Shown: piece after piece, positions 3,748-64,000 of the stretch | How positions within the stretch are numbered: the first letter of the stretch is position 1 | How the letters are laid out: the number at the start of each line of letters is the position of its first letter | Assembly: GCA_022828145.1 (NCBI GenBank) | Contig: JAJEJA010000009.1 | Coordinates: 31,254-95,253, forward strand | Length of the DNA: 64,000 nt | Direction: 5' to 3' | Source: Candidatus Poribacteria bacterium | Lineage (GTDB): Bacteria; Poribacteria; WGA-4E; WGA-3G | The notes under the pieces: model-generated | Databases searched by the model: none | Told to the model about the DNA's origin: nothing | The model's input: only the letters and a program-made list of their open reading frames with translations | Program-made: the position numbers and the translations under genes

Positions 3748-3987
3748 TCAAAACACCATAAATTTATCATGAGTTTGTCAAATACATTAAACATAATAGG
3801 CAGAACTTATGTCTAAATCAATCAATAAGTAACGTTTGGTTTAATTTTCTCGTAATATGCAATTGTATAACACATAGCGTATCTTATTTTAGAGGCAATT
3901 GCAAGTGAAATTCACCAGGATAGTTATGTGTCTTAAAGTTATTCTATTTTACTTGATTATGTTTTGAATAAAAAAGGAGTACTTAAA

Positions 3988-4992: not shown

Positions 4993-6111
4993 TTACTTCT
5001 GATTTTCTGAAGGTTGAGGATCATCCGCTTCAAGTTTCTCAATCAATTCATCAATCCTATCCTCTAATTGATTAACCCGCTCTTTTAACTCACTAATTTC
5101 ATTAGAATCACCCGTTGTTTTCTTGAATGTATCAGGATTAATTTCAAGAACTTTCGCTCCATCTTTTTCTATAATAATGGTAGCATCAGGATGTTTCTGC
5201 TCAAATAGTTTTCTAATCGCATCAACTAACGCATCAGAATCTGTGTCTTTGATGAGTTTTTCTATATGTAACTTAATATCTTCAATATCCTTTAAATTCT
5301 TCTCAAGGTTTTTAAAATTATTCTCAACGATTGCAGAACCGGAGGGATTAACTTTTATGACCTTGACACCACCCACACTAAAAGTTCCATTAGCATCCAT
5401 CTGATAGTTCTTAAGAAGCTCCTTTATCTGCTTAGACAGCTCATCAGAATCAGCAGAGAGTTCTTTCGTAAGTTTCACGATCTTTTCTGTGAGTTTATCA
5501 ACTTCAGCTGAATCCAAAAACTTCATAGATAAACTGTTTATATCTTTTTTCAGAACTTTAATATTATCAGAATCAACTATGGTGGTCAAATCGCTGTCAA
5601 TTTTATCCTTCAGTGCTGTAATGATTTCTGACAACTCCCCAACATCTAAATCCTTACCCTTGACAATCTTTGACTTACCATCAGGAGTTATTGTATAAAC
5701 AACCCAACCATCTTCTCCATCTAACTTGACAGAATCAACGAATTCAACTTCAACATCCTTGATGTTATCAAGCCCTTTAAACAATTCCTCTATTTTTTTT
5801 GTTAACTTTTCAAAATCAGAAGTCTTCCTATCAAACTCATCATCGGAAAGTTCCTTAGCGGATTCTGTGATTACCTTAACCTTCTCATGAATCTCATCAA
5901 CCTTATTCTCAACTTCAACAACATCCGTTTGATTATTTGTGTCTTCATCAGACTCGGTACTATCTTCATTAATCTCAGTTTCATGCGGTGTCTCAGATTC
6001 TTCAGTCGTGTTTGCATCTTCAGGTGTTCCAACATCTGAATTAACCATGAATGCAGTCACTCCCAGAAGTAACACAAGCATGAACATAGCGACTAAACTT
6101 CTTATTTTCAT
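4993..6111 (-). CDS. Secreted acidic low-complexity protein (E/D/K-rich, coiled-coil-like), function unknown
   Basis: N-terminal signal peptide MKIRSLVAMFMLVLLLGVTAFMVNS. No recognisable domain. Confidence 0.5.
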   Translation of the reverse strand: MKIRSLVAMFMLVLLLGVTAFMVNSDVGTPEDANTTEESETPHETEINEDSTESDEDTNNQTDVVEVENKVDEIHEKVKVITESAKELSDDEFDRKTSDFEKLTKKIEELFKGLDNIKDVEVEFVDSVKLDGEDGWVVYTITPDGKSKIVKGKDLDVGELSEIITALKDKIDSDLTTIVDSDNIKVLKKDINSLSMKFLDSAEVDKLTEKIVKLTKELSADSDELSKQIKELLKNYQMDANGTFSVGGVKVIKVNPSGSAIVENNFKNLEKNLKDIEDIKLHIEKLIKDTDSDALVDAIRKLFEQKHPDATIIIEKDGAKVLEINPDTFKKTTGDSNEISELKERVNQLEDRIDELIEKLEADDPQPSENQK

Positions 6112-6154
6112 TTTATGCTCCTTTTATGTTGACTATAAAAAATCTAAACAAACT

Positions 6155-6183
6155 CGGTAGGTTCGGTTTCCTAACCGAACCGG
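6155..6183. repeat. Palindromic intergenic repeat family A (CGGTAGGTTCGGTTTCCTAACCGAACCGG)
   Basis: The same 29-30 nt hairpin element recurs at 18073, 18235 and four times at 42377-42594. Confidence 0.8.
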
Positions 6184-6218
6184 ACTATAAAGAAAATTAG
6201 CGATTGGATCAGTGGAAT

Positions 6219-6260
6219 CTTCCAGCCTTCCAGCCTTACTCCCTTCCAGCCTTCAACCTT
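6219..6260. repeat. Short tandem CTTCCAGCCTT-type repeats x3
   Basis: cttccagccttccagccttactcccttccagccttcaacctt. It shares the CTTCCA core with the octamer array at 11541. Confidence 0.6.
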
Positions 6261-6291
6261 TAAGTTTTATACACTAATTATTGAAAATAGT

Positions 6292-7365
6292 TCAATTTTT
6301 TTCGGAGCGTCTCATCAATTCAAGAATTGCAGTTATCGCCTTATCTGCATCTTGGAGTCTGTTTATGGAAGTATCTGAGTCAAATGAATGCGTAATTGCA
6401 TCTTGCAGCTCTTTCATCTTTATAAGCGTGAGAATACCGTTCTCTTCCATATAGTGATAGGTGTTATATCTTTTTGGCAGACGGTGTGTTTTATGCGTAA
6501 ACTCCAAAACGAATACGTTTCTGCCACTACTGGCAGCTTCACAGACCATCGAAAAACTGTCTGCACTCACGATTAGGATATCGCTCAATGCGAGAATCGC
6601 CTGATACGGATCGTCTATTGTAGATACTGTATCGGGTGTGACAAAAATTGGACACCACTCCTCTTTTTCAAAGTTCGACATCAGAAATTGTGTTACTTCA
6701 GGAGGTGTGCGGCGAGAAGTTGTCAGCAGAATTTGTAAGCGGTGAGTAGTTGCGAGGCTCTTACACACATTATATAATTCTTTTGCATCCGACAATGAAA
6801 TAGTCTCGTGTTTATCTGTTCCACCAATCAGCAGACCGATACGTCTTTGGTGCTTTAGTTTCAGTACATTCTGAAGAATACCTCGTTCAGAATTTAATAC
6901 TTCCACCGAAATAGGATTTGGGATACCGATAGTTTGGCAGATGGTCGGTCTGTTTTTCTGTTTTTTCCAATACACCATTGGGAGTATGGCGAGGTTAAAA
7001 TGACGAACGCCTAAAGGAGAAGGGCGTAGGCAAGTAACTGTTTTAGCATTTAGCAACCTTCCCAGAAGCAAATTGACTGAGGCGACTGATGAACCTGTAG
7101 AGAGAATTAAGTCTGCTTCTTGAAGGAGGTATAATGAATTGTAAGAATCGGAATCAAGACACCGTCGCAAGAGACTATGAACGAGGGATGCTGGTAACGC
7201 TATTCCCCCAAACACACACATGAATATCCGCAGTAAGTTATCACGCCATTTACTTTTAAATACAATATCAATCCATTCTGAATCACAATCAGGAATATTT
7301 TGGATGATGCCCAGGGATTGTTTATAATGTCCTGGTTTCTTATCACTTAAGACGACTATTTTCAT
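6292..7365 (-). CDS. ELM1/DUF1022-like putative glycosyltransferase-fold protein
   Basis: N-terminus KIVVLSDKKPGHYKQSLGI and an internal TSRRTP motif resemble the ELM1/DUF1022 family. The assignment is tentative. Confidence 0.4.
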   Translation of the reverse strand: MKIVVLSDKKPGHYKQSLGIIQNIPDCDSEWIDIVFKSKWRDNLLRIFMCVFGGIALPASLVHSLLRRCLDSDSYNSLYLLQEADLILSTGSSVASVNLLLGRLLNAKTVTCLRPSPLGVRHFNLAILPMVYWKKQKNRPTICQTIGIPNPISVEVLNSERGILQNVLKLKHQRRIGLLIGGTDKHETISLSDAKELYNVCKSLATTHRLQILLTTSRRTPPEVTQFLMSNFEKEEWCPIFVTPDTVSTIDDPYQAILALSDILIVSADSFSMVCEAASSGRNVFVLEFTHKTHRLPKRYNTYHYMEENGILTLIKMKELQDAITHSFDSDTSINRLQDADKAITAILELMRRSEKN

Positions 7366-7983: not shown

Positions 7984-9348
7984 TTATGCAAATCCAATAT
8001 ATCTTGCGATGAAGAATACTGCGAAATAGTGAACAAGCGGATTTACTTCATTATGACGTCCAGTGACTATCTTCAAAAACGAGATAGAAATAAAACCGAT
8101 TGCGATTCCATCCGTTATACTGAAGGTAAGCGGCATCATAAACACGGTCAACGCAGCGGGGATTGCCTCAGTAAAATCATCCCAATTGATGTTCACGAGG
8201 TCTTTTAACATCAAACAACCAACAACAATTAGGGCAGGACCAATAATTGGATGGAGTTGCATAGTTTTTGTTATAGGATTATTATTGATGATTACAGTGT
8301 GATCATATAGAACTTCTCCACCAACAATATTAATTAAAGGTGAGAAAAATACAGCAAGTAACATCAAAAGACCAACAACAATTGCAGTGAGACCGGTACG
8401 TCCTCCCTCAGCAATACCGGAAGCACTCTCAATATAACACGTAACCGTTGAAGTTCCGAGACATGCCCCACCAACTGAACCGATCGCGTCTGTCAAGAGG
8501 GCTTGTCGACCTTTAGAAAGTTTGCCATCATCAAGAAGACCCGCCTCATGACCTGTGGCAGTAAGCGTGCCGATACTATCAAACATATCCACAGAAAAGA
8601 AAACAAAAATAATAGGAATTAACTCAACCTTGCTAAAGATGTCTGGAAAACGTAGTTTAAAAAACGTTGGCTCTATGGGTGGAGGGGCAGAAACGACACC
8701 ATTGAATTTGACAAGTCCAAAGAGTAAAGATAGGATAGTTGTGGCGAGAATTCCCATTAGAATAGCTCCCTTTACTCGATGAGCCATAAGTGTCAATGTA
8801 ATTAGTATACCAAAGATTGATATCAGCACAGGTTTTGAATGGATTTCACCGAGCGAAACAAACGTAGCACCGTGTAACGTAACGATACCACTCATTTGCA
8901 AACCAATGAGCGCAATGAACACCCCTATTCCGACCGCAATAGCATTGCGTAGTGAAGAAGGGAGGGCATTCATTACGGCAGCACGCAAACCGACAAATGA
9001 AAGTATCGCGAACAGCATGCCCGATATAAAAACGATGCCTAATGCATCTTGCCAAGCCAAGTTCAAGTCTCTCCCTAAGCAGACCTCAAAGACAAAATAG
9101 GCATTTATACTCATACCGGGTGCAAGGGCAATAGGATAATTCGTTAGAAATGCCATCAAGAATGTCGCACCTGCACTTGATAGACAAGTTGCCATCATTA
9201 CAGCGTCTGCATCCATACCTGCTTTCGCTAAAAGCGCAGGTTGGTAGAATATGATGTATGAGAGAGACATGAATGTTGTAAACCCAGCGACTATCTCTCG
9301 TCGAACAGAAGTATGGTTTTCTTTTATTTTAAATAACTTTTCTAACAT
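7984..9348 (-). CDS. NCS2-family purine permease (AzgA/PbuG-like adenine/guanine/hypoxanthine permease)
   Basis: 454-aa polytopic membrane protein with the typical AzgA N-terminus ...REIVAGFTTFMSLSYIIFYQPALL. Confidence 0.8.
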   Translation of the reverse strand: MLEKLFKIKENHTSVRREIVAGFTTFMSLSYIIFYQPALLAKAGMDADAVMMATCLSSAGATFLMAFLTNYPIALAPGMSINAYFVFEVCLGRDLNLAWQDALGIVFISGMLFAILSFVGLRAAVMNALPSSLRNAIAVGIGVFIALIGLQMSGIVTLHGATFVSLGEIHSKPVLISIFGILITLTLMAHRVKGAILMGILATTILSLLFGLVKFNGVVSAPPPIEPTFFKLRFPDIFSKVELIPIIFVFFSVDMFDSIGTLTATGHEAGLLDDGKLSKGRQALLTDAIGSVGGACLGTSTVTCYIESASGIAEGGRTGLTAIVVGLLMLLAVFFSPLINIVGGEVLYDHTVIINNNPITKTMQLHPIIGPALIVVGCLMLKDLVNINWDDFTEAIPAALTVFMMPLTFSITDGIAIGFISISFLKIVTGRHNEVNPLVHYFAVFFIARYIGFA

Positions 9349-9507
9349 AGCCTCTCCCCCTATTGTTAGTGAAATGCAATACAGTTAGTCTCTAATGAAA
9401 ACCAAAGAAGATTACTGGAGCTGCGAAATTGCGATCTGTACCGTAGATCTCTATCTGATGTGAATTCTCTACGGCACAGAACACAGTGGACAGTTCAAGT
9501 CAAACTT

Positions 9508-9610
9508 GTAGGTCGGGTAGAGCGAAGCGCCAATAAAATATTAACTGGCGACATGATAGACACAATCAATACGTGTCGGGTTTCGTTCCTCTACCCGACC
9601 TACATTTTTT
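9508..9610. repeat. Inverted-repeat element family C (GTAGGTCGGGTAGAGGAACGAAACCCGACA) followed by a T-run
   Basis: Left arm gtaggtcgggtagag at 9508-9522; right arm tgtcgggtttcgttcctctacccgacctac at 9574-9603, then tttttt. The same family forms a perfect 35-bp inverted repeat at 59482-59575. Confidence 0.7.
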
Positions 9611-9642
9611 AGTCTGGACTATCCAATAGTCTATTGACAGTT

Positions 9643-11427
9643 CTACTTTAAACGCGCTTCTAAGGCATCTAATTCGTCTGACAAAGCCTTTGGCAGTCTC
9701 TCCTCAAACCGGGCATAGTGTTCACGGATTGATGCAATCTCATTTAGCCACTCTTCTTTGTCTACATGCAGTAGTTCATCCATCTGTTCTTCAGTAACGT
9801 CGATGCCAGAGGTGTCAATTGCATTTTTCGCTGGCACATAACCTATCGGTGTTTCAGTAGCTTCCGCTTCACCGTTGATCCGATCAACGATCCACTTCAG
9901 CACACGACTGTTTTCTCCGAAACCTGGCCACAACCACCCCCCATCTTCATCTTTACGGAACCAATTAACATAGAAGATACGCGGGAGTTTATCCGCATCT
10001 GTTTTCTCACCCATCTCTAACCAATGTGCAAAGTAATCCCCCATATTGTATCCACAGAATGGGAGCATTGCCATAGGATCCCGTCGCAGTTCGCCAACTG
10101 TACCAGCAGCAGCAGCAGTTCGTTCTGACGAGGCAATTGAACCGATAAACGTTCCATGTTGCCAATTGAACGCCTCAAACACAAGAGGAACAGTGGACGC
10201 CCGTCTACCACCAAACAGAATTGCAGAAATTGGTACACCATTCGGATCTTCCCAACTCGGATCTATGATAGGACATTGTGATGCAGGCGTCGTATAACGT
10301 GAATTAGGATGGGCAGCAGTTTTTTCATCACCAGGATGCCATTCTTCACCAAGCCAACTTGTTAATGTATCCGGCACATCGTCACTCATCTCTTCCCACC
10401 AAACATCATTGTCTTCTGTCAGTGCGGAATTCGTAAATATAGAGTTTGATGCAAGCGTGTGCATTGCATTCGGGTTTGTATCCATAGATGTCCCTGGAGC
10501 AACACCGAAGAATCCTGCTTCTGGATTGATCGCATAAAGCCGACCATCTTCACCAAATTTCATCCATGCGATATCATCTCCGATTGTTTCTGCTTTCCAA
10601 CCGGGTATCGTCGGTGTTAGCATGGCAAGGTTCGTTTTTCCACAAGCACTCGGAAATGCTGCCGCAATGTATGTCTTTTTACCTTCAGGACTTGTTAATC
10701 CTAAGATAAGCATGTGTTCTGCCATCCAACCATCATTTTTTGCCATAATTGAGGCGATCCGGAGCGCATAGCATTTTTTACCGAGTAATGCGTTACCACC
10801 ATATCCACTACCAAAAGACCAGATTGAACGTTCTTCAGGAAAGTGCACAATGTACTTATTGTCAGGATTGCAGGGCCAAGAAACATCTTTCTGTCCGGGT
10901 TCAAGTGGTGCACCAACAGAGTGTAAACACGGCACAAAATCACCATCTTCACCTAAGATATCCAACACCTCTTTACCCATACGAGTCATAATACGCATAT
11001 TCACCACAACATAGGGTGAATCACTTATTTCAACACCGATATGTGAAATTGGTGATCCCAGCGGACCCATACTGAAAGGAACAACATACATAGTTCTGCC
11101 TTTCATGCACCCCTTAAATAAGCCATTTAATGTTGCCTTCATTTCTACTGGATCGTGCCAATTGTTTGTTGGTCCTGCTTCAGCTGGGGTTTTGGCGCAG
11201 ATGTATGTCCTTCCTTCAACGCGAGCAACGTCTTCAGGATCAGAGCGTGCAAGGTAGCTGCCGGGTCTTTTATCCGGATTTAGACGAATAAAAGTCCCAT
11301 TTTGCACCAATTGTTCACAGAGTCGGTCATTCTCCTCTTGTGAACCATCGCACCAATAAATATCATCGGGTTGGCACAGCTCCGCTGTCTCCTTAACCCA
11401 ACTGAGCAGTTTACTATTGTTTGTCAT
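9643..11427 (-). CDS. pckG: Phosphoenolpyruvate carboxykinase (GTP)
   Basis: 594 aa with the [18 protein letters not shown] signature of GTP-dependent PEPCK. Confidence 0.9.
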
Positions 11428-41684: not shown

Positions 41685-41923
41685 ATTACCTTCTCCTTAG
41701 GGGATTATATACAAGAATGAAACGATACGAAGCTATTCTTCGTTGACTCAAAATTGATTTTTAATTGTTTTTTTTGAATCTGGTCATAAAATGGGTAATG
41801 TGCAGCACCGTCAATGTTATTTGGGGTTAGACGCATAATCACACAGGTGAAAACGATGATGCTGTTTTCACTATCTGGTTGGAGAACTACCGTGACGAAT
41901 TCAGGACCGCTTACTGCATCGGT

Positions 41924-42184
41924 TCAAACTTCCGACTCATACAATGCTTGTAATAATGCATCAACATCGGTGGTGTTGCTTGCTTTGTTAAACAGATCTA
42001 CCAAACGATCATGGTCCTGAATAGATTCAAGTGTCTGCTTTACAAGTTGTATATCGCTTGACGGAATACTCCCAATAAGCACTCTCAAAATATGTGTGAT
42101 AAGATATTTACGTTCTCTTTCTCTTCTTAAATGTTCTTCAAAGGAAAAATGTTCAATATAGGTAAAGGGAGATTCTTGCATCAT
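41924..42184 (-). CDS. Small hypothetical protein (86 aa)
   Basis: GGAGG SD upstream. It is preceded by a consensus minus-strand promoter that is part of the inverted E module. Confidence 0.4.
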   Translation of the reverse strand: MMQESPFTYIEHFSFEEHLRRERERKYLITHILRVLIGSIPSSDIQLVKQTLESIQDHDRLVDLFNKASNTTDVDALLQALYESEV

Positions 42185-42288
42185 TTCCTCCGATATTAGT
42201 TTCGGCGTACCTATCCATCAGAAACTTCACGATTTCATCAAATTGTGCCATGTTATGTGTTCCGCCTTTCGGACAAGTACTTTTATTG

Positions 42289-42318
42289 ATTATACTTGAT
42301 GGGACGGTGGATTGTCAA
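42289..42318 (-). promoter_or_regulatory. Sigma70 consensus promoter (minus strand) driving the small ORF at 42184
   Basis: On the minus strand: TTGACA (42318..42313), 18-nt spacer, TATAAT (42294..42289). Confidence 0.5.
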
Positions 42319-42357
42319 GGGAAGTTTTTGCCACTCTATTTGTCTGAATCGCGGAGG
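42319..42357 (-). repeat. Inverted copy of the upstream module E (tccgcgattc(a/t)gacaaatagagtg(g)caaaaactt)
   Basis: Revcomp of 42320-42355 = tccgcgattcagacaaatagagtggcaaaaacttcc; this matches the 42839-42872 part of E1 at 34 of 35 aligned positions (one indel). Together they form roughly 40-bp inverted flanks around the repeat island. Confidence 0.75.
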
Positions 42358-42363
42358 ACGTGG

Positions 42364-42545
42364 TAATACCCCCAGGCCGGTAGGTTTGGTTTCCTAACCG
42401 AACCGGATTCTACGCGAAAACCTTAATACCCCAGGCCGGTAGGTTTGGTTTCCTAACCGAACCGGATTCTACGCGAAAACCTTAATACCCCAGGCCGGTA
42501 GGTTTGGTTTCCTAACCGAACCGGATTCTACGCGAGAACCTTTAT
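42364..42545. repeat. 59-bp tandem direct repeat x3, each unit containing a family-A-like hairpin (ccggtaggtttggtttcctaaccgaaccgg)
   Basis: Unit: taataccccaggccggtaggtttggtttcctaaccgaaccggattctacgcgaaaacct. The hairpin cores start at 42377, 42436 and 42495, giving a 59-bp period. The units are near-identical, so these are not CRISPR spacers. Confidence 0.85.
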
Positions 42546-42564
42546 AAACGCAAATGAAGCAAAG

Positions 42565-42594
42565 CCGGTTCGGTTGGGAAACCGAACCTACCGG
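42565..42594. repeat. Inverted family-A-like copy terminating the tandem array
   Basis: ccggttcggttgggaaaccgaacctaccgg is the revcomp of ccggtaggttcggtttcccaaccgaaccgg. Confidence 0.8.
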
Positions 42595-42634
42595 CCTGGG
42601 GAAATCTGATTTTTCAAACTCACGTTAAATATAG

Positions 42635-42780
42635 AAGCACAATCTAACAGAATGTGCTACGGCAGTGTGAAGATGGATGGTGTGGGGGGAAGGATAATGA
42701 TGGATGAAAGGGGTTGGAGGAAGAAGCACAATCTAACAGAATGTGCTACAAAGAAAGGCACAATCTAACAGAATGTGCTA
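42635..42780. repeat. Repeat family D: three copies of the hairpin AGCACAATCTAACAGAATGTGCTAC
   Basis: Copies at 42635-42660, 42725-42748 and 42757-42780. The stem is AGCACA/TGTGCT with an 11-nt loop. Copies 1 and 3 are followed by ggcagtgt(g/c)aag. Confidence 0.8.
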
Positions 42781-42837
42781 CGGCAGTGTCAAGTAGGTTA
42801 GGAACATGAGCCTCTTAAAATCCGCGAAATCTGTGAA

Positions 42838-42925
42838 ATCCGCGATTCTGACAAATAGAGTGCAAAAACTTTACACACCCCACCCGTATTATATTATTGA
42901 CACTCACAAATAGGTGTGGTAATAT
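42838..42925 (+). promoter_or_regulatory. Upstream module E1 plus sigma70 promoter for lnt-prfB
   Basis: atccgcgattctgacaaatagagtgcaaaaactttacacaccc (42838-42880), then TTGACA (42897-42902), 17-nt spacer, TAATAT (42920-42925). A near-identical module precedes the GGGPS gene at 57731. Confidence 0.6.
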
Positions 42926-55552: not shown

Positions 55553-56407
55553 TTGACAATGCGGACGTTGTTAACGTATGTTGAACTTGCCAGGCCTTTG
55601 AACGGTGTGATCGCATTTATTTCTACTTGGTTAGGTGGCATATTCGCGATAGGCAGCACACTCAATTCATTTTTAGAAGTAAAGTTATTATATGTTTCTA
55701 TTGCCTCACTGTTACTACTCTCCGCAGGCAATGCAATAAATGATTATTGTGATTATAACATTGATTGCCATAACAGGCCTGATCGTCCACTCCCTTCAGG
55801 TAGAATCCGTAGAAGAAATGCACTAATATTCGCCATAACGCTTATCGGACTCGGTATTGCACTTGGTGTGTTAGTTAATCTATATGCGGTTTTTGTAGCA
55901 ATATTGGTGTCTATGCTTCTCGTGAGCTATGCTCTCATTCTAAAACGTACACCTATCTTAGGAAATTTGGTTGTCGGTATTCTTACAAGTCTGACGTTCA
56001 TTTCTGGTGGCATAGCAGTCGGTTCAGTACATAGCACCATCATACCTGCTATTTTTGCCTTTCTATTTACAACAGCAAGGGAGATTGTCAAAGACCTTGA
56101 GGATATTGAAGGAGATAAAAGAGAAAACATCAAGACACTTGCCAATCTCAATCCGCGTCTGGCAATCATCATGGCATTGAGTTTTATGTTCTCTGTGATC
56201 ATATTTAGTCCTATTCCCTATCTGCTTGGACTTTATCCGTGGCAATATTTGGTGACAATCTTACTTGGCGTTGATCTTGTCCTTATCTGCTTGGGAATTC
56301 AGCTCGTGAAGAACGTCTCAAAAGACGGTTATGCAAAAATACAACGGTGGATGAAATGGGACATATTCGTAGGTTTAGGTGCAATCTATTTTGGGATCAT
56401 ATATTGA
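55553..56407 (+). CDS. UbiA-family prenyltransferase, digeranylgeranylglyceryl phosphate synthase-like
   Basis: 284 aa, polytopic. NAINDYCDYNIDCHNRPDRPLPSGRI closely parallels the archaeal DGGGPS motif [21 protein letters not shown]. A second Asp-rich motif KDLEDIEGD is present. Confidence 0.65.
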   Translation: MTMRTLLTYVELARPLNGVIAFISTWLGGIFAIGSTLNSFLEVKLLYVSIASLLLLSAGNAINDYCDYNIDCHNRPDRPLPSGRIRRRNALIFAITLIGLGIALGVLVNLYAVFVAILVSMLLVSYALILKRTPILGNLVVGILTSLTFISGGIAVGSVHSTIIPAIFAFLFTTAREIVKDLEDIEGDKRENIKTLANLNPRLAIIMALSFMFSVIIFSPIPYLLGLYPWQYLVTILLGVDLVLICLGIQLVKNVSKDGYAKIQRWMKWDIFVGLGAIYFGIIY

Positions 56408-56446
56408 CAAAAGGGAACGACGATTCATTTCTCGTCGGAATAGATA

Positions 56447-57679
56447 GTGAAAGACTACACCAAAGTGATAGAGTTCTTAAACAGCACGACACCAAACATT
56501 GAGCATGCACTTCGCTTTATAAATACCTCTCAAACTTCATCCTTAACAGACGAATTGCTTAAAACCTGCAAGGTGTTCGCGTCAGGATGGAGACAGATTG
56601 ACGGTGTAATGTTGATGAGACAGATGGAAGGGCATGATTCTGATTATCGTATCCTTGTAAGTGCAACTACTGAAAGAAGTCTAAGGGAACTACTCCTCAC
56701 TTTTCCAAGAAGTTCAGTTGGAATGTTTTACCTGACAAACGATTGGATTGAAAGCAGAGTACTGGATCTGTTTGATGGTGAGAAGGTTAGTGTAGGATCA
56801 GAGGTATGTTTCGTTGGCACAAAAAAAGGCGGTACTACAGCAGCAGAACAGAAGACATTGAATAAAAAGAAAGATGCAATCAACAGTAATCTTGGTCATC
56901 TAACATCCATAAAGGGTAGATTCGAGAATTCTCAGTTTCTTATTGAAGGGGAAATGATGGTAGAACGCGCTTTCTCCGATGGATTACCTATTGAAAACGT
57001 GCTTTATACAAACGAATTTGTTGCGTCTGCTGCAGGTAGAGATTTTTTGATGAAAGTTTTTGCCGAAAATCTATCAATATATCTAACAAGAGATAGCCTG
57101 ATGGGTTCACTAACAACCACTCGTCCGATTCCCTCGATTATAGTATCCGTGCATCTAAATTATCCTACATTCTTAGATAAGGATGGATGTATGAATTTTC
57201 ATTTTAGTCAAGACTGTATACTGCTGATAATTGAAAACGTTCAGAATCCTGACAATCTTGGGATGACGTTACGCACGGCTGATGCTGCAGGTGTTTCCGC
57301 AGTACTGATAAGTGGAGAAGGGGCAAATCCGTTTCATAAAAACTGTATCCGTGCATCGCGTGGTGCTGTTGGTAGGATTCCCATTTTCTATGTTCCTTCA
57401 ACGAAACCAGCGATCGAGAAACTCAAAGCAAGCGGTTGGCATATCATCGGAGCAACAGCAAAGACAGAAAAGGAGCTTTACACATCGACTTATGAGAAAC
57501 CGATTGCAGTTGTTGTTGGTAATGAGCATAGTGGTTTAACAGAGGAGACGCGAAACCATTGTACAGAATTAGTCAGTATACCCATGGCAACGGGTCAATC
57601 CTCTCTGAATGTTGGCGTTGCTACCGGGATTCTACTATATGAATTAAACGCTAATCCTGTGAAAGTAAACCTGAGATGA
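56447..57679 (+). CDS. SPOUT (TrmH/SpoU-family) RNA 2'-O-methyltransferase with an N-terminal extension of roughly 160 aa of unknown function
   Basis: The C-terminal 250 aa carry the SpoU pattern (...LLIIENVQNPDNLGMTLRTADAAGV..., ...VVVGNEHSGL..., ...SLNVGVATGILLYEL). Confidence 0.65.
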   Translation: MKDYTKVIEFLNSTTPNIEHALRFINTSQTSSLTDELLKTCKVFASGWRQIDGVMLMRQMEGHDSDYRILVSATTERSLRELLLTFPRSSVGMFYLTNDWIESRVLDLFDGEKVSVGSEVCFVGTKKGGTTAAEQKTLNKKKDAINSNLGHLTSIKGRFENSQFLIEGEMMVERAFSDGLPIENVLYTNEFVASAAGRDFLMKVFAENLSIYLTRDSLMGSLTTTRPIPSIIVSVHLNYPTFLDKDGCMNFHFSQDCILLIIENVQNPDNLGMTLRTADAAGVSAVLISGEGANPFHKNCIRASRGAVGRIPIFYVPSTKPAIEKLKASGWHIIGATAKTEKELYTSTYEKPIAVVVGNEHSGLTEETRNHCTELVSIPMATGQSSLNVGVATGILLYELNANPVKVNLR

Positions 57680-57730
57680 GCCAGAACACCTTCCGCGTCT
57701 TCCGTGCCAGCTATGTTAACTGGCGCGTCA

Positions 57731-57818
57731 TCCGCGATTCTGACAAAAGGGTGCCGAATAACTTTACACACCCACTATATTATAAGAATTTGACAAATTC
57801 GTCCGATGGTGTTAAAAT
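57731..57818 (+). promoter_or_regulatory. Upstream module E2 plus sigma70 promoter for the GGGPS gene
   Basis: tccgcgattctgacaaaagggtgccgaataactttacacaccc (57731-57773), then TTGACA (57790-57795), 17-nt spacer, TAAAAT (57813-57818). Confidence 0.55.
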
Positions 57819-57891
57819 AATTTAGTTTTGATATATAATCGTGTAAGTAAATTCCCGCAAGGATCAATGACATTTTGACAGTAAGGACCGG

Positions 57892-58644
57892 TTGCAATTG
57901 AGATCAAATTGTATTCTAAGATATCTAAAAACAGTAATTAAAGAAAAGGACGCAGGATACTTCATCTTGATTGATCCGGAAATGTGTGATGTAGAAAAGA
58001 CTGCAAAACTCGCCACTACCATAGAGAACGCAGGTGCAGATGCAATTCTACTTGGGGGTAGTCTATTGACCCAAGAATTAGATCCAATTGCCGCCTCTAT
58101 CAAGGCAGAAACCGAGTTGCCAATTATTCTATTCCCTGGCGATTCCATGCATCTCACACCGCATGCAGACGCACTCCTGTTTATGAGTCTCATCAGTGGA
58201 CGAAACCCAAACTATCTTATCGGGGAACAGGTAAAAGCAGCACCATGGATCCAGAAATATGGATTAGAACCCATACCAACGGGGTACATGTTGATTGATG
58301 GTGGGAGCAGAACCTCAGTAGAATTCATGAGTGGCACCGTTCCTATTCCGAGAGACAAACCTGACATCGCTGCACCCCATGCCCTGGCAGCAGAATACCT
58401 CGGTATGCAGATGGTCTATCTGGAAGCAGGAAGTGGGGCAACACTCCCTGTGCCAAACGCGATGATTTCTGCTGTGAAAGAACAGATCACAACACCATTG
58501 ATTGTGGGGGGAGGCATAAGATCGCCTGAAACAGCAGCTGAAAAAGTAAGAGCAGGAGCAGATTTCATAGTCACGGGTAACATACTTGAAGAAACAGGTT
58601 CTATTGACCTTATCAAACAGTTTGCCATCGCAATTCATGGTTAA
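57892..58644 (+). CDS. Geranylgeranylglyceryl/heptaprenylglyceryl phosphate synthase family (GGGPS/PcrB)
   Basis: 250 aa; ILIDPE..., ...YLEAGSGA..., ...IVGGGIRSPETAAEKVRAGADFIVTGN... match PcrB/GGGPS (compare B. subtilis PcrB FKLDP, YLEYSG, FYGGGIKD). Confidence 0.75.
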   Translation: MQLRSNCILRYLKTVIKEKDAGYFILIDPEMCDVEKTAKLATTIENAGADAILLGGSLLTQELDPIAASIKAETELPIILFPGDSMHLTPHADALLFMSLISGRNPNYLIGEQVKAAPWIQKYGLEPIPTGYMLIDGGSRTSVEFMSGTVPIPRDKPDIAAPHALAAEYLGMQMVYLEAGSGATLPVPNAMISAVKEQITTPLIVGGGIRSPETAAEKVRAGADFIVTGNILEETGSIDLIKQFAIAIHG

Positions 58645-58712
58645 CTATTGCAAATGACTTACCCTAAGAATATAATTTGAAAACAATCATTTAGAACGTG
58701 AGGAATTACATT

Positions 58713-59441
58713 ATGTCAGAAAACAGAGAGGTAGTTATTGAAATTGGAACTGAAAACGATAAATCTGATTCTGAGACTTTTGCAACACCAGATGATTCTG
58801 ACAATACTACCGAGATAGAAAATAAGAATGACGAACCTACTGTAGAAACATTGCTTGCAGAAATTGAAGAACTCAAAGAATCTTTCAAAAAACAGATTGA
58901 GGAAGTTGCAGAATCAGAGAGAGCACAATATGAAACTGAACGGGAACGCTTGTTGCGCACCGCTGCAGAAGCTGAAAATACAAAAAGACGTGTTGAAAAC
59001 GATGCTAAGAAGCAGCTAAAATTTGCAAATAAGAATATCATAGAAGGAATTATTCCTGTATTGGATAGCCTTGAAGCAGCAATTAATAGCACTGATGAAA
59101 AGGTTGAAACTGAAGAACATAATCCAGATATGTCTAACTTCAGTGAGGGCGTAGAATTAGTACATAAGCAACTATTAGATGTTCTAAGATCACATGGACT
59201 TACGCCAATAGACTCTGCAAGTGGTTCATTTGATCCAAACCAGCATGAAGCTGTCTTTGCAACAGAATCAGATGAAGTACCAGAGGGGAATATAATTGAG
59301 GAATTCAGACGAGGATATCTGCTGCATGAACAAGTGATCCGTGCCGCACAAGTTGTCGTGTCAACGGGAAAGAAAAAGGAAGAACCCTCCGATGAAGTAA
59401 CCGAAGAAATCATAATCGAAATTTCAACTGAGGAAGAATAA
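58713..59441 (+). CDS. grpE: Nucleotide exchange factor GrpE
   Basis: 243 aa with an acidic N-terminus, coiled-coil and the C-terminal GrpE domain (...IDSASGSFDPNQHEAV...). Confidence 0.85.
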   Translation: MSENREVVIEIGTENDKSDSETFATPDDSDNTTEIENKNDEPTVETLLAEIEELKESFKKQIEEVAESERAQYETERERLLRTAAEAENTKRRVENDAKKQLKFANKNIIEGIIPVLDSLEAAINSTDEKVETEEHNPDMSNFSEGVELVHKQLLDVLRSHGLTPIDSASGSFDPNQHEAVFATESDEVPEGNIIEEFRRGYLLHEQVIRAAQVVVSTGKKKEEPSDEVTEEIIIEISTEEE

Positions 59442-59481
59442 ATGTAATACCAAATCTAATTGATTAATTAACATTATTGTC

Positions 59482-59575
59482 TTTTCGTAGGTCGGGTAGA
59501 GGAACGAAACCCGACATGGAAGTCTTTATCTAATCCTACGTGTCGGGTTTCGTTCCTCTACCCGACCTACGAAAA
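59482..59575. repeat. Perfect 35-bp inverted repeat (family C) with a 24-nt spacer, between grpE and dnaJ
   Basis: ttttcgtaggtcgggtagaggaacgaaacccgaca ...24 nt... tgtcgggtttcgttcctctacccgacctacgaaaa. Each arm also contains an internal gtcgggt/acccgac hairpin. Confidence 0.85.
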
Positions 59576-59624
59576 TAATACTATATAATCATTTAGAAAT
59601 GGTATAACTTAGGTAGGAAAACAC

Positions 59625-60734
59625 ATGGAACAAAAACGCGACTATTATGATGTTTTGAACGTCAGCAGAGATGCAGATGAGAACGAAATTAAAAAAGCAT
59701 ATAGAAAATTAGCAATAAAATATCATCCAGATAAAAATCAAGGTGATAAAGACGCCGAAGACAAATTCAAAGAAGCCGCCGAAGCTTATGACGTGTTGAG
59801 AACACCAGAAAAACGACAGCGATATGACCAATATGGACATGCTGGACTTGAAGGGACAACATCCGGATACGGGTATGGCGTAAACCTTGACGATATATTG
59901 AGTGAGGTGTTTGGAGACGTATTAGGGGGTTTTGGAAGAACAAGCAATAGACCCAAACCGGGACGGAGCATACCGTATAACCTTGAAATCACACTTGAGG
60001 AAGCATATTACGGTAAGGAGGAAACAATTGAAATACCCCGAATTGAATCTTGTCCTGATTGTAACGGCAGTGGCGCAGAAAGAGGATCAACTATTGATAC
60101 GTGTCCTCAGTGCTATGGACAGGGACAAGTAACACAATCACAAGGTTTCTTTACAATGTCCCGAACATGTCCACGATGCCATGGAGAAGGTAAAATTATC
60201 AAGAACCCATGCAGAAACTGTAACGGACAAGGTAGAATAAGAGTCAAAAAAGAACTCAAGATAAAAATAGATAAAGGTGTTGACAACGGTACTAAGTACA
60301 GCTTGCGTGGACAGGGTGAAGCAGGTACTTTAGGAGGACCCCCCGGAGACCTACTGGTTGTAATCCACATAAAGCCACACCAAACTTTCGTCAGAGAGGG
60401 AAACGATTTATATACTTATGCAAAAATTTCGTTCATCCAAGCAGCACTTGGAACTACTATTGAAGTTAAAAGTATTGATGGTGTGCAGGAATTAGATGTG
60501 CCAGCAGGAACACAATACGGAGACCAATTGCACATTAAAGGGAAGGGAATGCCAAGATACAGAAGTTCTTATTACGGCGACCTTGTTGTTCAGATAGAGA
60601 TAGAAACACCAAGAAAACTCACGGCACAACAGAGAACACTGTTAGAACATTTTGATGCCCCTGAGTATAAACCTGACGGATCTGAGAACAGTAGTTTCTG
60701 GGAAAAACTTTTTGGCAATCCAGATGATAAGTAG
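59625..60734 (+). CDS. dnaJ: Molecular chaperone DnaJ
   Basis: 369 aa with a J domain (HPD), G/F region, four CxxCxGxG zinc-finger repeats and the C-terminal domains. Confidence 0.9.
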   Translation: MEQKRDYYDVLNVSRDADENEIKKAYRKLAIKYHPDKNQGDKDAEDKFKEAAEAYDVLRTPEKRQRYDQYGHAGLEGTTSGYGYGVNLDDILSEVFGDVLGGFGRTSNRPKPGRSIPYNLEITLEEAYYGKEETIEIPRIESCPDCNGSGAERGSTIDTCPQCYGQGQVTQSQGFFTMSRTCPRCHGEGKIIKNPCRNCNGQGRIRVKKELKIKIDKGVDNGTKYSLRGQGEAGTLGGPPGDLLVVIHIKPHQTFVREGNDLYTYAKISFIQAALGTTIEVKSIDGVQELDVPAGTQYGDQLHIKGKGMPRYRSSYYGDLVVQIEIETPRKLTAQQRTLLEHFDAPEYKPDGSENSSFWEKLFGNPDDK

Positions 60735-60751
60735 TCAATTCTTACTGAAAA

Positions 60752-61636
60752 ATGAAATGGATACAGATTACAATAAAAACATCTCATGAAGCATCTGAAG
60801 CCGTGGCAAATCAATTATTTGAAATGCGGTCACTCGGTGTTGAGATAACTGAAGACAACAAAAATGGTACACTATTAACTGCATATTTCCCGCTGGATGA
60901 CAAAATCAATTCAAAAGTTAACACACTAAGAACCTTCCTGTCAAAACTACCGGCATGGGGAATCCAACCGAATCCAGCAAAAATTGAACTAAAAAGAATT
61001 GAGTCAGAAAAATGGACAGAAGCGTGGAAGGCAAATTTCACACCTCAAAAAGTAGGAGAAAAGATACACATCGTTCCAACATGGTATGAACAACCTATCA
61101 ATGAATCAGACATCGTAATAAGACTTGATCCTGGCATGGCGTTTGGCACAGGTTACCATCCAACAACACGATTATCTCTACAAATGTTGGAGAAAGCGAT
61201 CAGACCGAATCAGATTGTGGCAGATGTAGGAACTGGCTCTGGTATTTTAGCAATTGCTGCTATCAAACTGGGGGCGAAACATATTGACGCGATCGAACTT
61301 GACCCGACAGCAATACCAGTAGCAATGACCAATTTCGCTAATAACAGTGTCTCAAAAAAAATCACATTACATGAAGCAGATGGGCTCCGGACTGTTAAAC
61401 GAAAATACGATCTTATAGTCGCAAACATCCTAACAAAAGCGATCATACCATTGATTCCATACTGTCGTGATAGATTAAATTCTGATGGAAGCCTAATCTT
61501 ATCCGGTATTCTGGAATCAGAACAGGCCGACGTTCAAGAGACTTTAAAAGAAAACGGTTTAGAATGCGTTTCTGTTACACGGCAAGCAGAGGATAAACTA
61601 ATGTGGGTAGCAATGTTAGCGAGATTCCTTTGCTAA
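60752..61636 (+). CDS. prmA: Ribosomal protein L11 methyltransferase
   Basis: 294 aa with the PrmA N-terminal domain and the SAM-MTase motif VADVGTGSGILAIAA. The dnaJ-prmA adjacency is common. Confidence 0.8.
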   Translation: MKWIQITIKTSHEASEAVANQLFEMRSLGVEITEDNKNGTLLTAYFPLDDKINSKVNTLRTFLSKLPAWGIQPNPAKIELKRIESEKWTEAWKANFTPQKVGEKIHIVPTWYEQPINESDIVIRLDPGMAFGTGYHPTTRLSLQMLEKAIRPNQIVADVGTGSGILAIAAIKLGAKHIDAIELDPTAIPVAMTNFANNSVSKKITLHEADGLRTVKRKYDLIVANILTKAIIPLIPYCRDRLNSDGSLILSGILESEQADVQETLKENGLECVSVTRQAEDKLMWVAMLARFLC

Positions 61637-61873
61637 TCCATGACAAAGATTACATCTACCGAGATTGAGATGGGGCATGATAGGTGATTTCTCATCACCA
61701 TGTTTATGACAAGTCAGACACGCTGCATCTTCAGAAGATGCTCGATGTTCCTCAATATTGGATCTGGCAGGTGCTGCATTAAAAAAAAGAATTACCATTA
61801 CAATCGCGAATATTAAACCGATAACGCAGACAATATACATTACCACTTTCGGGTTAGCTTGATCGGTAGGCAT
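61616..61873 (-). CDS. Small membrane-anchored dihaem c-type cytochrome (two CxxCH motifs), NapC/NirT/NrfH-like N-terminal architecture
   Basis: 85 aa with an N-terminal TM helix, then CLTCH and CNLCH. It is convergent with prmA and overlaps its 3' end by 21 nt. Confidence 0.4.
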   Translation of the reverse strand: MPTDQANPKVVMYIVCVIGLIFAIVMVILFFNAAPARSNIEEHRASSEDAACLTCHKHGDEKSPIMPHLNLGRCNLCHGLAKESR

Positions 61874-61928
61874 GTGATATTTGAAATTCCTTACTATAGT
61901 TGTTTGTTAAATATGTGCCATTGACAGC

Positions 61929-62753
61929 CTATTCAAAGAATGGGAAAAGGATCGGTATGTTCTCGGCAGTGAGTCGGGAACCGTACTCACTGGTCTCAAA
62001 AACTTCAGCAAAGTTTGTATCAAGACCTACGCTGACACCGTATAGATTCGTCAACAGACTTCTATGGTCTTCGGCAATCACATTGAAGCGGTTACGCATG
62101 CGATCTGAAAGCCATTCGCGTCTGGCATCATCGCTCTCAGGCACTGAATCCAGTGTTCCGCTGTTGTATGGAAGCCATTCATAGAACTGAGAAGTATGAC
62201 AATGGAGCATATCAATTTTCTGTTCAATGACTGCATCAATGTTTATCGCTATATCTGGACAAAATGCATTCGGTTTCTTAAAACCATCACTAAGATACAT
62301 AATCACAGGATTCCGCTGCATGTGTGGTGTCAGGGCACATACATTTGGAACTGTAACCATATAGGCAGCATCTTGAACCAGAATTGACGTATAACGGTGG
62401 TCTGGATGATAATCATTCGGTCGGTGAGTCATGATTAGGTCAGGTACAAACTCACGAATCAGACGAATAATCTGAAAGCGATTCTCTAAAGTAGGAACAA
62501 GTTCTCCATCATGATTGTCAAGTAATTCATAATCGATACCGATAACAGCCGCTGCAGCTTGTGCTTCAGCATTTCGTCTTTGTGCTAAAGCACCACCACC
62601 CATCTGATGGTGTCCTGCATCGCCGTTGGTAACGGAAACGAATTTAACATGGTGTCCGTTCTGTTTATATAGAGCTGCAACACCGCCTGCTTTAATATCA
62701 CAATCGTCTGGATGTGCACCGATAACCATAACCCGTATCACTTCGCTGTTCAT
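61929..62753 (-). CDS. PIG-L/LmbE-family N-acetylglucosaminyl deacetylase
   Basis: 274 aa with the N-terminal VIGAHPDDCDIKAGG motif and downstream HPDH. Confidence 0.75.
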   Translation of the reverse strand: MNSEVIRVMVIGAHPDDCDIKAGGVAALYKQNGHHVKFVSVTNGDAGHHQMGGGALAQRRNAEAQAAAAVIGIDYELLDNHDGELVPTLENRFQIIRLIREFVPDLIMTHRPNDYHPDHRYTSILVQDAAYMVTVPNVCALTPHMQRNPVIMYLSDGFKKPNAFCPDIAINIDAVIEQKIDMLHCHTSQFYEWLPYNSGTLDSVPESDDARREWLSDRMRNRFNVIAEDHRSLLTNLYGVSVGLDTNFAEVFETSEYGSRLTAENIPILFPFFE

Positions 62754-62820
62754 ATATTAAACTCACATTAAAAGATGTTTGTGTAGAATTAAAATCATAC
62801 CGCTATCACAGGAAAAACTA

Positions 62821-63288
62821 ATGAATTCTTGGAAAGTTGAAGTTACATATAAATCAGAAATTACAGACTTTGTTGGCAAAGAGATTCTTGAAGATATTGC
62901 GGACCTTGGCATAGATGGTGTTGAAGCGGTCCGTACTGCATCAATATATTGGATTGAAGGAACACTTAACACCGAACACATACACAGAATTGGCAGCGAA
63001 CTCCTTGCTGATCCGATTACACAAGTGTTTAAGCTGACTGAAGAAAAAGAAGAAACAGCCGATTGGACAATAGAAGTCCAATACAAACCGGGTGTAACAG
63101 ATGCTGTTGGCGATAGTACTGTCAAGGGTATCAAAGATATCGGTATCTCCTCTGTCAACAATGTTCGGACAGGCAAAAAGTTCTGGTTAAGTGGAAACCT
63201 AAGTAATCAAATCATAGAAAATATTGCACAACGTCTTCTAATGAATGATGTAATCCAGACCTTTTCTTATGTAGAACCACATTTCTAA
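62821..63288 (+). CDS. purS: Tandem double-PurS-domain protein (FGAM synthase PurS-like x2)
   Basis: Two repeats, WKVEVTYKSEITDFVGKEILEDIADLGIDGVEAVRTASIYWIEG and WTIEVQYKPGVTDAVGDSTVKGIKDIGISSVNNVRTGKKFWLSG, each following the PurS pattern (V.V.LKPGVLDPQG.....L..LG...V.DVR.GK.F.L). Start chosen at the ATG with an AGGAAA SD. Confidence 0.6.
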   Translation: MNSWKVEVTYKSEITDFVGKEILEDIADLGIDGVEAVRTASIYWIEGTLNTEHIHRIGSELLADPITQVFKLTEEKEETADWTIEVQYKPGVTDAVGDSTVKGIKDIGISSVNNVRTGKKFWLSGNLSNQIIENIAQRLLMNDVIQTFSYVEPHF

Positions 63289-63309
63289 ATCCAGCGCGAT
63301 AAAAGCGTC

Positions 63310-64000
63310 CTAAAACAGAGGTAATCCTTGCGCTTCAGTATAGACCGAATATAGTGACTGACTACCTGTCATAAACAACCTGTTTCGTTTTGTTCCTCCG
63401 AAACATAAATTTGAACAGATTTCTGGTAAGTGAATTTTACCTATCAGTGTTCCATCTGGAGCGAATATATGTACACCGTCATATCCATCTCCCACCCAAC
63501 CGGCACTTGACCATAGATTGCCGTCTATATCACACCTGATACCATCTGCTATACCTGGGGACATATCACAAAATACCTGTTTGTTCTCTAAGTGTTCACC
63601 GTCTACAACATCAAAAACATATATATTTCTTGGACTTCCCTCTTTATGTATTGCACCCGTATCTACAACATACAGTTTTTCATAATCTGGTGAAAAGCAT
63701 ATTCCATTCGGTTTCTCAAGCTCCGTTGTAACAACAGTCGCTACTCTTGCTTCTGGATTCAGACGATATACTGCAGTGGGTAGTTCAAAATCTGCGACGT
63801 GTCCTTCGTAATTCAGCATAATACCGTATCCTGGATCGGTAAACCATATATGTCTATCTGCATGCACAGCAACATCATTTGGTGCATTGAGCCGTTTACC
63901 ATCATAGTGATCCATCAACACAGAAAGCGTTCCATCGTATTCAGTTCGAGTAACGCGTCGTGTGCCGTGTTCACAACTGATAAGTCTTCCTTGTCGGTCT
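63310..64000 (-). CDS. SMP-30/gluconolactonase/LRE-like beta-propeller protein. The N-terminus lies beyond the window end
   Basis: ...NAPNDVAVHADRHIWFTDPGYG... and a ...GNLWSSAGW... repeat pattern. The ORF is open to position 64000. Confidence 0.6.
   Translation of the reverse strand, partial: DRQGRLISCEHGTRRVTRTEYDGTLSVLMDHYDGKRLNAPNDVAVHADRHIWFTDPGYGIMLNYEGHVADFELPTAVYRLNPEARVATVVTTELEKPNGICFSPDYEKLYVVDTGAIHKEGSPRNIYVFDVVDGEHLENKQVFCDMSPGIADGIRCDIDGNLWSSAGWVGDGYDGVHIFAPDGTLIGKIHLPEICSNLCFGGTKRNRLFMTGSQSLYSVYTEAQGLPLF

Follow-up and report, generated by a model that had tools for sequence, protein, structure and literature searches.

The grpE and dnaJ genes of this Candidatus Poribacteria genome are separated by a long palindrome, and the question raised by the locus is whether the palindrome serves the two chaperone genes or is one copy of a repeat that came to lie between them. 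We analyzed it within a stretch of 64,000 nucleotides, which we call the window (64 kb). The grpE gene (58713-59441, plus strand; stop codon 59439-59441) encodes 242 amino acids from ATG 58713 and matches Pfam GrpE with E = 2.9e-43; the open reading frame call started instead at GTG 58698, and the GrpE proteins of relatives are 239-245 amino acids long. The dnaJ gene (59625-60734, plus strand) matches Pfam DnaJ, DnaJ_CXXCXGXG and DnaJ_C and is directly followed by prmA (60752-61636, plus strand; Pfam PrmA).

A preliminary description of this DNA, made from the letters alone, had stated that dnaK is missing from between grpE and dnaJ and that the palindrome occupies the place where dnaK is normally found. 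The first statement was confirmed by the Pfam matches and by a tblastn search with E. coli DnaK (1e-8), which detected no dnaK between the two genes or anywhere else in the 64-kb window. The second did not hold. In all eight Poribacteria DnaJ lineages examined, grpE is directly followed by dnaJ, and in 68 metagenomic loci carrying DnaJ relatives of 40-72% identity the gene upstream of dnaJ was GrpE in 34, GroEL in 21 and Hsp70 in only 6. The adjacency of grpE and dnaJ without dnaK is thus the normal Poribacteria layout, and it is common elsewhere.

Our repeat search recovered the perfect inverted repeat as it had been described, with two arms of 35 nt (59482-59516 and 59541-59575) that are 100% complementary and 24 nt apart, and with an inner 7-bp hairpin in each arm (GTCGGGT at 59491-59497 with ACCCGAC at 59509-59515, and a second pair at 59542-59548 and 59560-59566). 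Two details had to be corrected. Between the grpE stop and the left arm there are 40 nt and not 41 nt, and the repeated unit is larger than the perfect arms, since imperfect outer arms, 76% complementary (pair I2 of the repeat search), extend the palindrome to 59445-59607. This 163-nt element (TAATACCAAATCTAATTG ... CATTTAGAAATGGTATAA; no strand) fills nearly the whole gap from the grpE stop to the ribosome-binding region of dnaJ, and it is what the window has in addition to the empty sites of relatives. What is left of the native spacer is 59608-59624 (CTTAGGTAGGAAAACAC, plus strand), the dnaJ ribosome-binding region, which is kept in relatives that lack the insert.

The element is built of nested parts. 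REP unit 1 (59487-59515, plus strand) consists of a GTAG tag (59487-59490), the stem GTCGGGT, an 11-nt loop (AGAGGAACGAA) and the stem ACCCGAC. REP unit 2 (59542-59570, minus strand) is the same sequence in the opposite orientation, so that its tag reads CTAC at 59567-59570. Between them lies a spacer of 26 nt (59516-59541, no strand; ATGGAAGTCTTTATCTAATCCTACGT), whose first and last bases bring the perfect repeat to 35 nt. Thus, the two units form a head-outward (HH) homodimer in the layout of a REPIN. The dimer is nested in outer arms of about 40 nt that end in a 14-nt terminal inverted repeat with the family consensus TWATACCATTTCTA. In the window the left terminal repeat (59445-59460, plus strand) reads TA followed by ATACCAAATCTAAT and the right one (59592-59607, plus strand) reads TTTAGAAATGGTATAA, so that the termini of the element are TAATACCAAATCTAAT... 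and ...TTTAGAAATGGTATAA; the right-end motif TAGAAATGGTAT(A/T)A recurs among family copies, and the terminal repeat was found again in about 40 elements at other loci. In being small, bounded by terminal inverted repeats and without coding capacity, the 163-nt element has the features of a TIR-type MITE.

The predicted fold of this sequence is very stable. As RNA, the 183-nt spacer gave -88.5 kcal/mol, compared with -35.3 +/- 4.8 kcal/mol for dinucleotide shuffles (z = -11.2; none of 200 shuffles was as good), and the 163-nt element as DNA gave -55 kcal/mol (z = -14.9). The long hairpin (-71.1 kcal/mol) is predicted to be far more stable than both small hairpins together (-22.0 kcal/mol), and REP unit 1 in isolation folds at -9.7 kcal/mol. 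The native remainder at 59608-59624 was unpaired in the predicted fold. Two candidate identities for such an RNA were rejected. With permissive thresholds, the best Rfam match of the spacer was the precursor of plant MIR2863 at 51 bits against a threshold of 94, and all matches were sub-threshold plant microRNA precursors or other long hairpins, that is, generic hairpin matches. A hammerhead-like motif, suggested by a CGAAAC string, was ruled out by the lack of a CUGANGA core in the element.

A perfect palindrome of this length could also be a product of assembly, for example a fold-back chimera. The k = 31 Logan contig of the window's strain ends inside the right arm, a break that would fit such an artefact but is expected of a repeat, and the orientation of the loop differs between two assemblies. 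However, the element recurs with identical arms and flanks in L082, a megahit k141 contig of an independent MAG (JAJDZB010000064.1) that is 97.8% identical to the window over 55940-63937, and long-read complete chromosomes (OZ242381.1 and others) hold related copies. We therefore regard an artefact as extremely improbable. A search with the exact GrpE sequence, using both possible start codons, returned no further assembly of the strain on record.

We compared the same spacer in a series of Poribacteria DnaJ orthologues of graded identity and in one metagenome locus, all of which keep the order grpE-dnaJ-prmA. The REP doublet element, in a spacer of 183 nt, was present in the window and in L082 (DnaJ 100% and 99% identical, respectively). 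The spacer was 23 nt in L201 and about 22 nt in L198-200 (both DnaJ 88%), 23 nt in L203/204 (80%), 32 nt in L205 (74%), 35 nt in L206 (73%) and 34 nt in L114 (72%). The empty site of L201 reads TAA-AAACAAC-TTAGGTAGGAAAACAG-ATG, and in the window the 163-nt element is placed between TAA-ATG and CTTAGGTAGGAAAACAC-ATG. Comparison of the filled with the empty sites shows that the element entered a native spacer of about 23 nt, directly 3' of the grpE stop, and that the insertion is recent and postdates the split from the relatives with 88% identical DnaJ.

Two other lineages carry inserts of their own at this point just after the grpE stop. In L195-197 (DnaJ 99%), the spacer is 120 nt and the insert (2884-2993) retains the outermost bases of the window's element (TAATACC ... 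AGAAATGGCATAA) around a different interior, a single GTAG-CGCAATCT...AGATTGTG hairpin. In L202 (DnaJ 81%), the spacer is 119 nt and holds an unrelated palindromic element (2885-2985), another GTAG hairpin of another repeat family, which has TA on both sides and is 93-98% identical to five further copies in that genome. Each of three lineages thus has its own palindromic element at the same point, and five lineages have none there, so that close relatives differ in whether the spacer is empty, filled or differently filled. It looks like an insertion hot spot or an insertion-tolerant site. Judged from these alignments, the site would be a tolerated and repeatedly used landing place and not the home of a conserved regulatory structure.

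The preliminary description had offered a processing or stability element and a transcriptional attenuator as possible functions, and had named absence of the repeat from relatives with the same gene order, together with many copies elsewhere, as what would speak against a role particular to this locus. Both were found: the spacer is empty, at about 22-35 nt, in L201, L198-200, L203-206 and L114, and copies are numerous elsewhere. A selected RNA element that sets the GrpE:DnaJ ratio would account for a very stable stem placed exactly between the two cistrons, for the unpaired state of the dnaJ ribosome-binding region in the predicted fold, and for the presence of some palindromic element at the site in three lineages; moreover, the parts of the literature available to us (PMC3733652, PMC2649163) report that REPs and Correia elements affect mRNA stability, RNase III cleavage and promoter creation. 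Yet five related DnaJ lineages (72-88% identical) share the gene order but lack the repeat, its place is taken by a non-homologous interior in a strain whose DnaJ is 99% identical, and identical units lie at many unrelated junctions. Moreover, the stem has no U-tract for termination, and there is no CIRCE operator near grpE or in the spacer. As a conserved function, such an RNA element is already largely refuted, and we consider it improbable at this locus. The many copies and the short empty gap in relatives suggest an ordinary selfish repeat and not a control element specific to the chaperones; we infer that the element has no chaperone-specific function.

Scans for regulatory signals gave the following results. 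The arm is followed by GAAAATAATAC on the plus strand and by GAAAAGACAAT on the minus strand, and a terminator scan returned nothing at the element; because no U-run follows the stem, it is not a canonical intrinsic (Rho-independent) terminator. The right terminal repeat holds an outward TGgTATAAC (59600-59608), a weak look-alike of an extended -10 element located 17 nt upstream of the dnaJ ATG, which the promoter scan did not report because position 6 of the hexamer is not T. The only good promoter-like site in that scan was TTGCAA-17-TATAAT at 58648-58676, upstream of grpE. A search of the 64-kb window for the CIRCE/HrcA operator (TTAGCACTC-N9-GAGTGCTAA) found none near grpE or in the spacer; its sole match, at 42076-42102 with 3 mismatches, lies inside an open reading frame. 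Should the two genes share a transcript, the 35-bp stem would appear in it as a by-product structure. There it might stop 3'-5' exonucleases downstream of grpE or serve as a substrate of RNase III, and such effects might partly uncouple the two cistrons.

The second half of the question is what kind of repeat this is. By blastn, the sequence of 59445-59607 was matched in 111 loci. A scan with a 25-nt core (GTCGGGTAGAGGAACGAAACCCGAC; exact match, one genome per species) found it in more than 110 stretches, from about 25 genomes among the matches listed; most are Candidatus Poribacteria and some are Desulfobacterota. Among the listed matches, 86 stretches came from Poribacteria MAGs and complete chromosomes. 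At least 20 stretches with the core are in genome CBDHDL and at least 14 in JAJDZB, MAG jk18x34bins.64, the window's own species. The 25-mer was not found in IMG/VR, and there is thus no sign of a phage vector. Three family units lie in the 64-kb window, where none is expected.

The unit has the same anatomy in every copy, namely GTAG, a 7-bp stem, a loop of 11-13 nt and the complement of the stem; the GTAG tag precedes the stem in both units of the grpE-dnaJ element and in nearly all of the more than 110 copies. The stem was GTCGGGT/ACCCGAC in 163 of 193 units. Where the 5' half-stem was mutated, the opposite base had changed in compensation at 33 of 42 positions in a register-independent test, and at least five distinct paired variants were present (GTTGGGT/ACCCAAC, GATGGGT/ACCCATC, GTCGGAG/CTCCGAC, GTCGGAT/ATCCGAC and GTTGGAT/ATCCAAC). 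Of 65 pairs of neighboring units, 57 had GTAG outward, and the modal gap was 22-27 nt; the dimers comprised 17 homodimers of the grpE-dnaJ type and 37 heterodimers. The units are strongly extragenic: only 19 of 193 (10%) lay in open frames of at least 200 amino acids, against a background coverage of 77%. The family is therefore a dispersed, hairpin-constrained, extragenic repeat with insertion polymorphism.

A second copy in the window lies between the genes for pckG (9643-11427, minus strand) and a permease (7984-9348, minus strand), the junction at which the preliminary description had placed the same repeat family, and correctly so. This copy (9485-9629, no strand) is an HH heterodimer with its units at 9508-9603. 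Its right unit (9575-9603, minus strand) has exactly the sequence of the grpE-dnaJ units, its left unit (GTAG at 9508-9511) carries the variant hairpin module GCCAATAAAATATTAACTGGC, and its outer arms, GTGGACAGTTCAAGTCAAACTT and ATTTTTTAGTCTGGACTATCCAATAG, are of another class. Across the family, one REP core is found with at least three unrelated classes of outer arms, and with yet other flanks in Desulfobacterota. Conversely, the arm class of the grpE-dnaJ element, which ends in TWATACCATTTCTA, also encloses a different GTAG hairpin (GTAG-CACAAACT...AGTTTGTG), so that the interiors between these ends are either REP dimers of 140-190 nt or the single different GTAG hairpin of about 114 nt.

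Taken together, these data make it likely that the grpE-dnaJ hairpin represents one copy of a REP-type mobile repeat, which is non-coding and dispersed. The MITE insertion that the preliminary description had listed among its options was right in substance, in that the hairpin belongs as one copy to a dispersed and probably mobile repeat family. A REP-associated tyrosine (HUH/Y1) transposase, with its gene elsewhere in the genome, would copy the unit by way of a single-stranded hairpin, as has been proposed for GTAG REPs. A tblastn search with E. coli RayT over about 0.9 Mb (REP-centered loci and the window) found no RAYT, so the mobilizing enzyme can only be inferred; the best match (E = 0.07) was rejected, as it falls in a class II tRNA synthetase gene. 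By Pfam, the 9 open reading frames bracketed by REP pairs encode unrelated proteins with no Y1 transposase among them, and the 112 open reading frames within 350 nt of a REP showed neither a Y1 transposase nor an enriched family among the top 25 families.

A different mode of movement must be weighed here, because the conserved unit reaches out to terminal inverted repeats beyond the REP dimer, which is more typical of a MITE with a DDE transposase than of a minimal REPIN. The element could be a conventional MITE that arose from an insertion sequence by deletion. A DDE transposase that recognizes the 14-nt termini would then move it as double-stranded DNA, and the REP hairpins would be only passenger or internal sequence. 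The comparison of filled and empty sites sets the boundaries of the insert at the terminal repeats and away from the REP units, the same termini enclose the different interiors described above, and TA flanks the L202 insert as it would for an element that duplicates TA. However, in the loci examined no pair of these termini encloses a transposase gene save for an unrelated insertion sequence in L053, and pairs of termini 0.6-3.5 kb apart yielded no convincing parent insertion sequence with TWATACCATTTCTA ends. By our reading, about 25 of 29 well-formed copies end in TT...TA or, in reverse complement, TA...AA, an asymmetric pattern unlike a symmetric TA duplication. The REP core also occurs with at least three arm classes that are unrelated to one another and with other flanks in Desulfobacterota; since the core stays constant across unrelated arms, the REP is the conserved entity. 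We therefore consider a conventional MITE unlikely, although the terminal inverted repeats and the insert boundaries that coincide with them keep it a live rival of a REP-type repeat.

Several relations between the family and other short elements were seen. In L049, a 34-nt module (GAATTCCATATGTGGATTCGGCGTTGATTTGGAC) is repeated head-to-tail at least three times beside a REP unit (about 3700-3925), and a related module (AAATGCCAAACGCGCATTTGGCGTTGATTTGGAC) occurs as single copies between the REP units of many dimers, giving a BIME-like mosaic. In L053 (5588-7211) an insertion sequence lies inside the second REP hairpin of a dimer; it carries a DDE_Tnp_1 open reading frame (5784-7139), has the ends ATAGGTGTCAACTTAAG and has GGGTTTCGTTCCTCTACCC on both sides. 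Similar junctions between a REP and an insertion sequence are present in L013, L081, L090, L092 and L105, and because the junction recurs, the insertion sequence appears to target the REP.

The family can be placed by its traits among the GTAG-tagged REPs of Di Nocera, De Gregorio and Rocco (2013, BMC Genomics 14:522, PMC3733652), of which only a part of the text was available for this comparison. Shared traits, according to that part, are the unpaired GTAG beside a stem of 6-13 bp (7 bp here), sub-families with complementary stem changes, the existence of large-loop families, a predominance of HH dimers 20-100 bp apart, and the occurrence of both homodimers and heterodimers. Likewise shared are copies that are mostly downstream of coding regions and between co-directional genes, a high number of dispersed, extragenic copies, several families per genome, and some dimers nested in longer palindromes (GTAG-15 of Anabaena variabilis). 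The Poribacteria repeats differ in that this phylum is outside the 8 phyla listed in the available text and in that long outer arms, of at least three classes, regularly enclose their dimers. The available text of PMC3733652 does not contain the string GTCGGG, and our placement is by traits and not by the 24 family consensuses.

With the REPINs and RAYTs of Bertels and Rainey (2011, PMC3116915; also PMC3337134), again as far as the accessible portions go, the element shares a pair of inverted REPs that, together with a short conserved spacer, form one long hairpin and recur as such; numerous near-identical copies in each genome; and presence or absence that differs between close strains. It differs in its conserved unit, which is longer than a REP doublet, and in the lack of a cognate RAYT in the approximately 0.9 Mb searched. 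In the Correia elements of Neisseria (PMC2649163, available in part), the likeness is one of form: they are intergenic palindromes of about 100-160 nt with terminal inverted repeats and give long hairpins when transcribed, but their sequence is unrelated, they have no GTAG-REP core and they make a TA duplication. Correia elements can create promoters at their ends and can be cut or protected by RNase III (same source), and they offer the closest parallel for possible side effects at grpE-dnaJ.

A fourth comparison is with the REP/BIME repeats of E. coli, whose stem and loop sequences differ from those of the Poribacteria family. The E. coli REPs, for example those beside rayT, also have a GTAG head and an imperfect palindrome, and there, too, REPs in alternating orientation and other short modules make up mosaics. 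Dimers in E. coli are heterodimers only, according to the available part of PMC3733652, whereas perfect homodimers are common here (17 of 54). Our comparison with E. coli, including the role of REPs as targets of insertion sequences, draws in part on PMC2817692, which was likewise available in part. As judged from these comparisons, the Poribacteria repeat is apparently a new and undescribed member of the GTAG-REP/REPIN class.

The 26-nt spacer between the REP units does not keep its orientation. At 59516-59541 of the window it is reversed relative to L082 (3579-3604), although arms and flanks are identical, and in L022 and L050 (both from the long-read chromosome OZ242381.1), L020 and L055 spacers of the same types point either way when the asymmetric outer arms are taken as reference. 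The presence of both orientations across the family suggests recurrent inversion between the inverted units, a parallel to the small hairpin-loop inversions known from plastid genomes.

The unit also crosses a phylum boundary. The same 29 nt, made up of GTAG and the 25-mer with its loop, are found unchanged in Desulfobacterota (L002, L010, L014-L016, L024, L031, L041, L059, L079 and others), whose carriers include a Desulfobacteraceae MAG (at least 19 stretches) and the isolate Hydrosulfovibrio ferrireducens. The GC content of the Desulfobacterota carriers is 48-56%, compared with 37-42% in Poribacteria, and the flanking arms are quite different; these copies are not contamination. The identical unit points to sharing of one REP sequence across phyla, whereas the available portions of the REPIN papers cited above describe REPIN-RAYT systems as mostly vertically inherited. 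Tentatively, one RAYT lineage might have traveled along, giving a horizontally spread cross-phylum REP/RAYT system that colonizes unrelated palindromic carriers and whose inter-REP spacer flips freely; we hold this for possible but rather doubtful. If true, it would contradict the prevailing picture of strictly vertical REPIN-RAYT inheritance, and the identical unit in two phyla is in any case a testable lead on horizontal REP spread.

For the chaperone locus itself, the finding is of minor importance, the hairpin being, on the comparison with relatives, a recent and dispensable addition. The grpE-dnaJ locus offers clean filled, empty and differently filled alleles, which are useful for studies of how such elements move. 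The repeats also bear on assembly quality and strain typing, because short-read assemblies break at them and near-identical strains differ in them. Several abundant GTAG-REP families, undescribed as far as we found, are present in Poribacteria, which are uncultured symbionts of sponges.

The window itself contains more than one such family: it holds 10 perfect sites of GTAG plus hairpin, compared with 1.07 in shuffles, and these belong to three families. A 1.2-kb intergenic region at 41685-42896 is packed with repeats. It includes three tandem 57-nt units (42365-42535), each with GTAG-GTTTGGTT-TCCT-AACCGAAC, an inverted unit at 42568-42591, and three GCACAATCTAACAGAATGTGCTAC hairpins at about 42637-42781. 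More units of the form GTAG-GTTCGGTT-TCCT-AACCGAAC are located at 6157, 18076 and 18238.

Two observations concern the genes around grpE and dnaJ. Just upstream of grpE (55553-58644) are genes for a UbiA-family prenyltransferase, a SpoU methylase and a PcrB-family protein (GGGP/HepGP synthase-like); in the relative L201 the UbiA and PcrB genes are directly adjacent, and the two could be a gene pair for ether-lipid-type prenyl-glycerol-phosphate in Poribacteria. Downstream, an 85-amino acid open reading frame (61616-61873, minus strand) overlaps the 3' end of prmA in antisense. It has no Pfam match, and an open reading frame of the same length is present at the same position in every Poribacteria relative compared.
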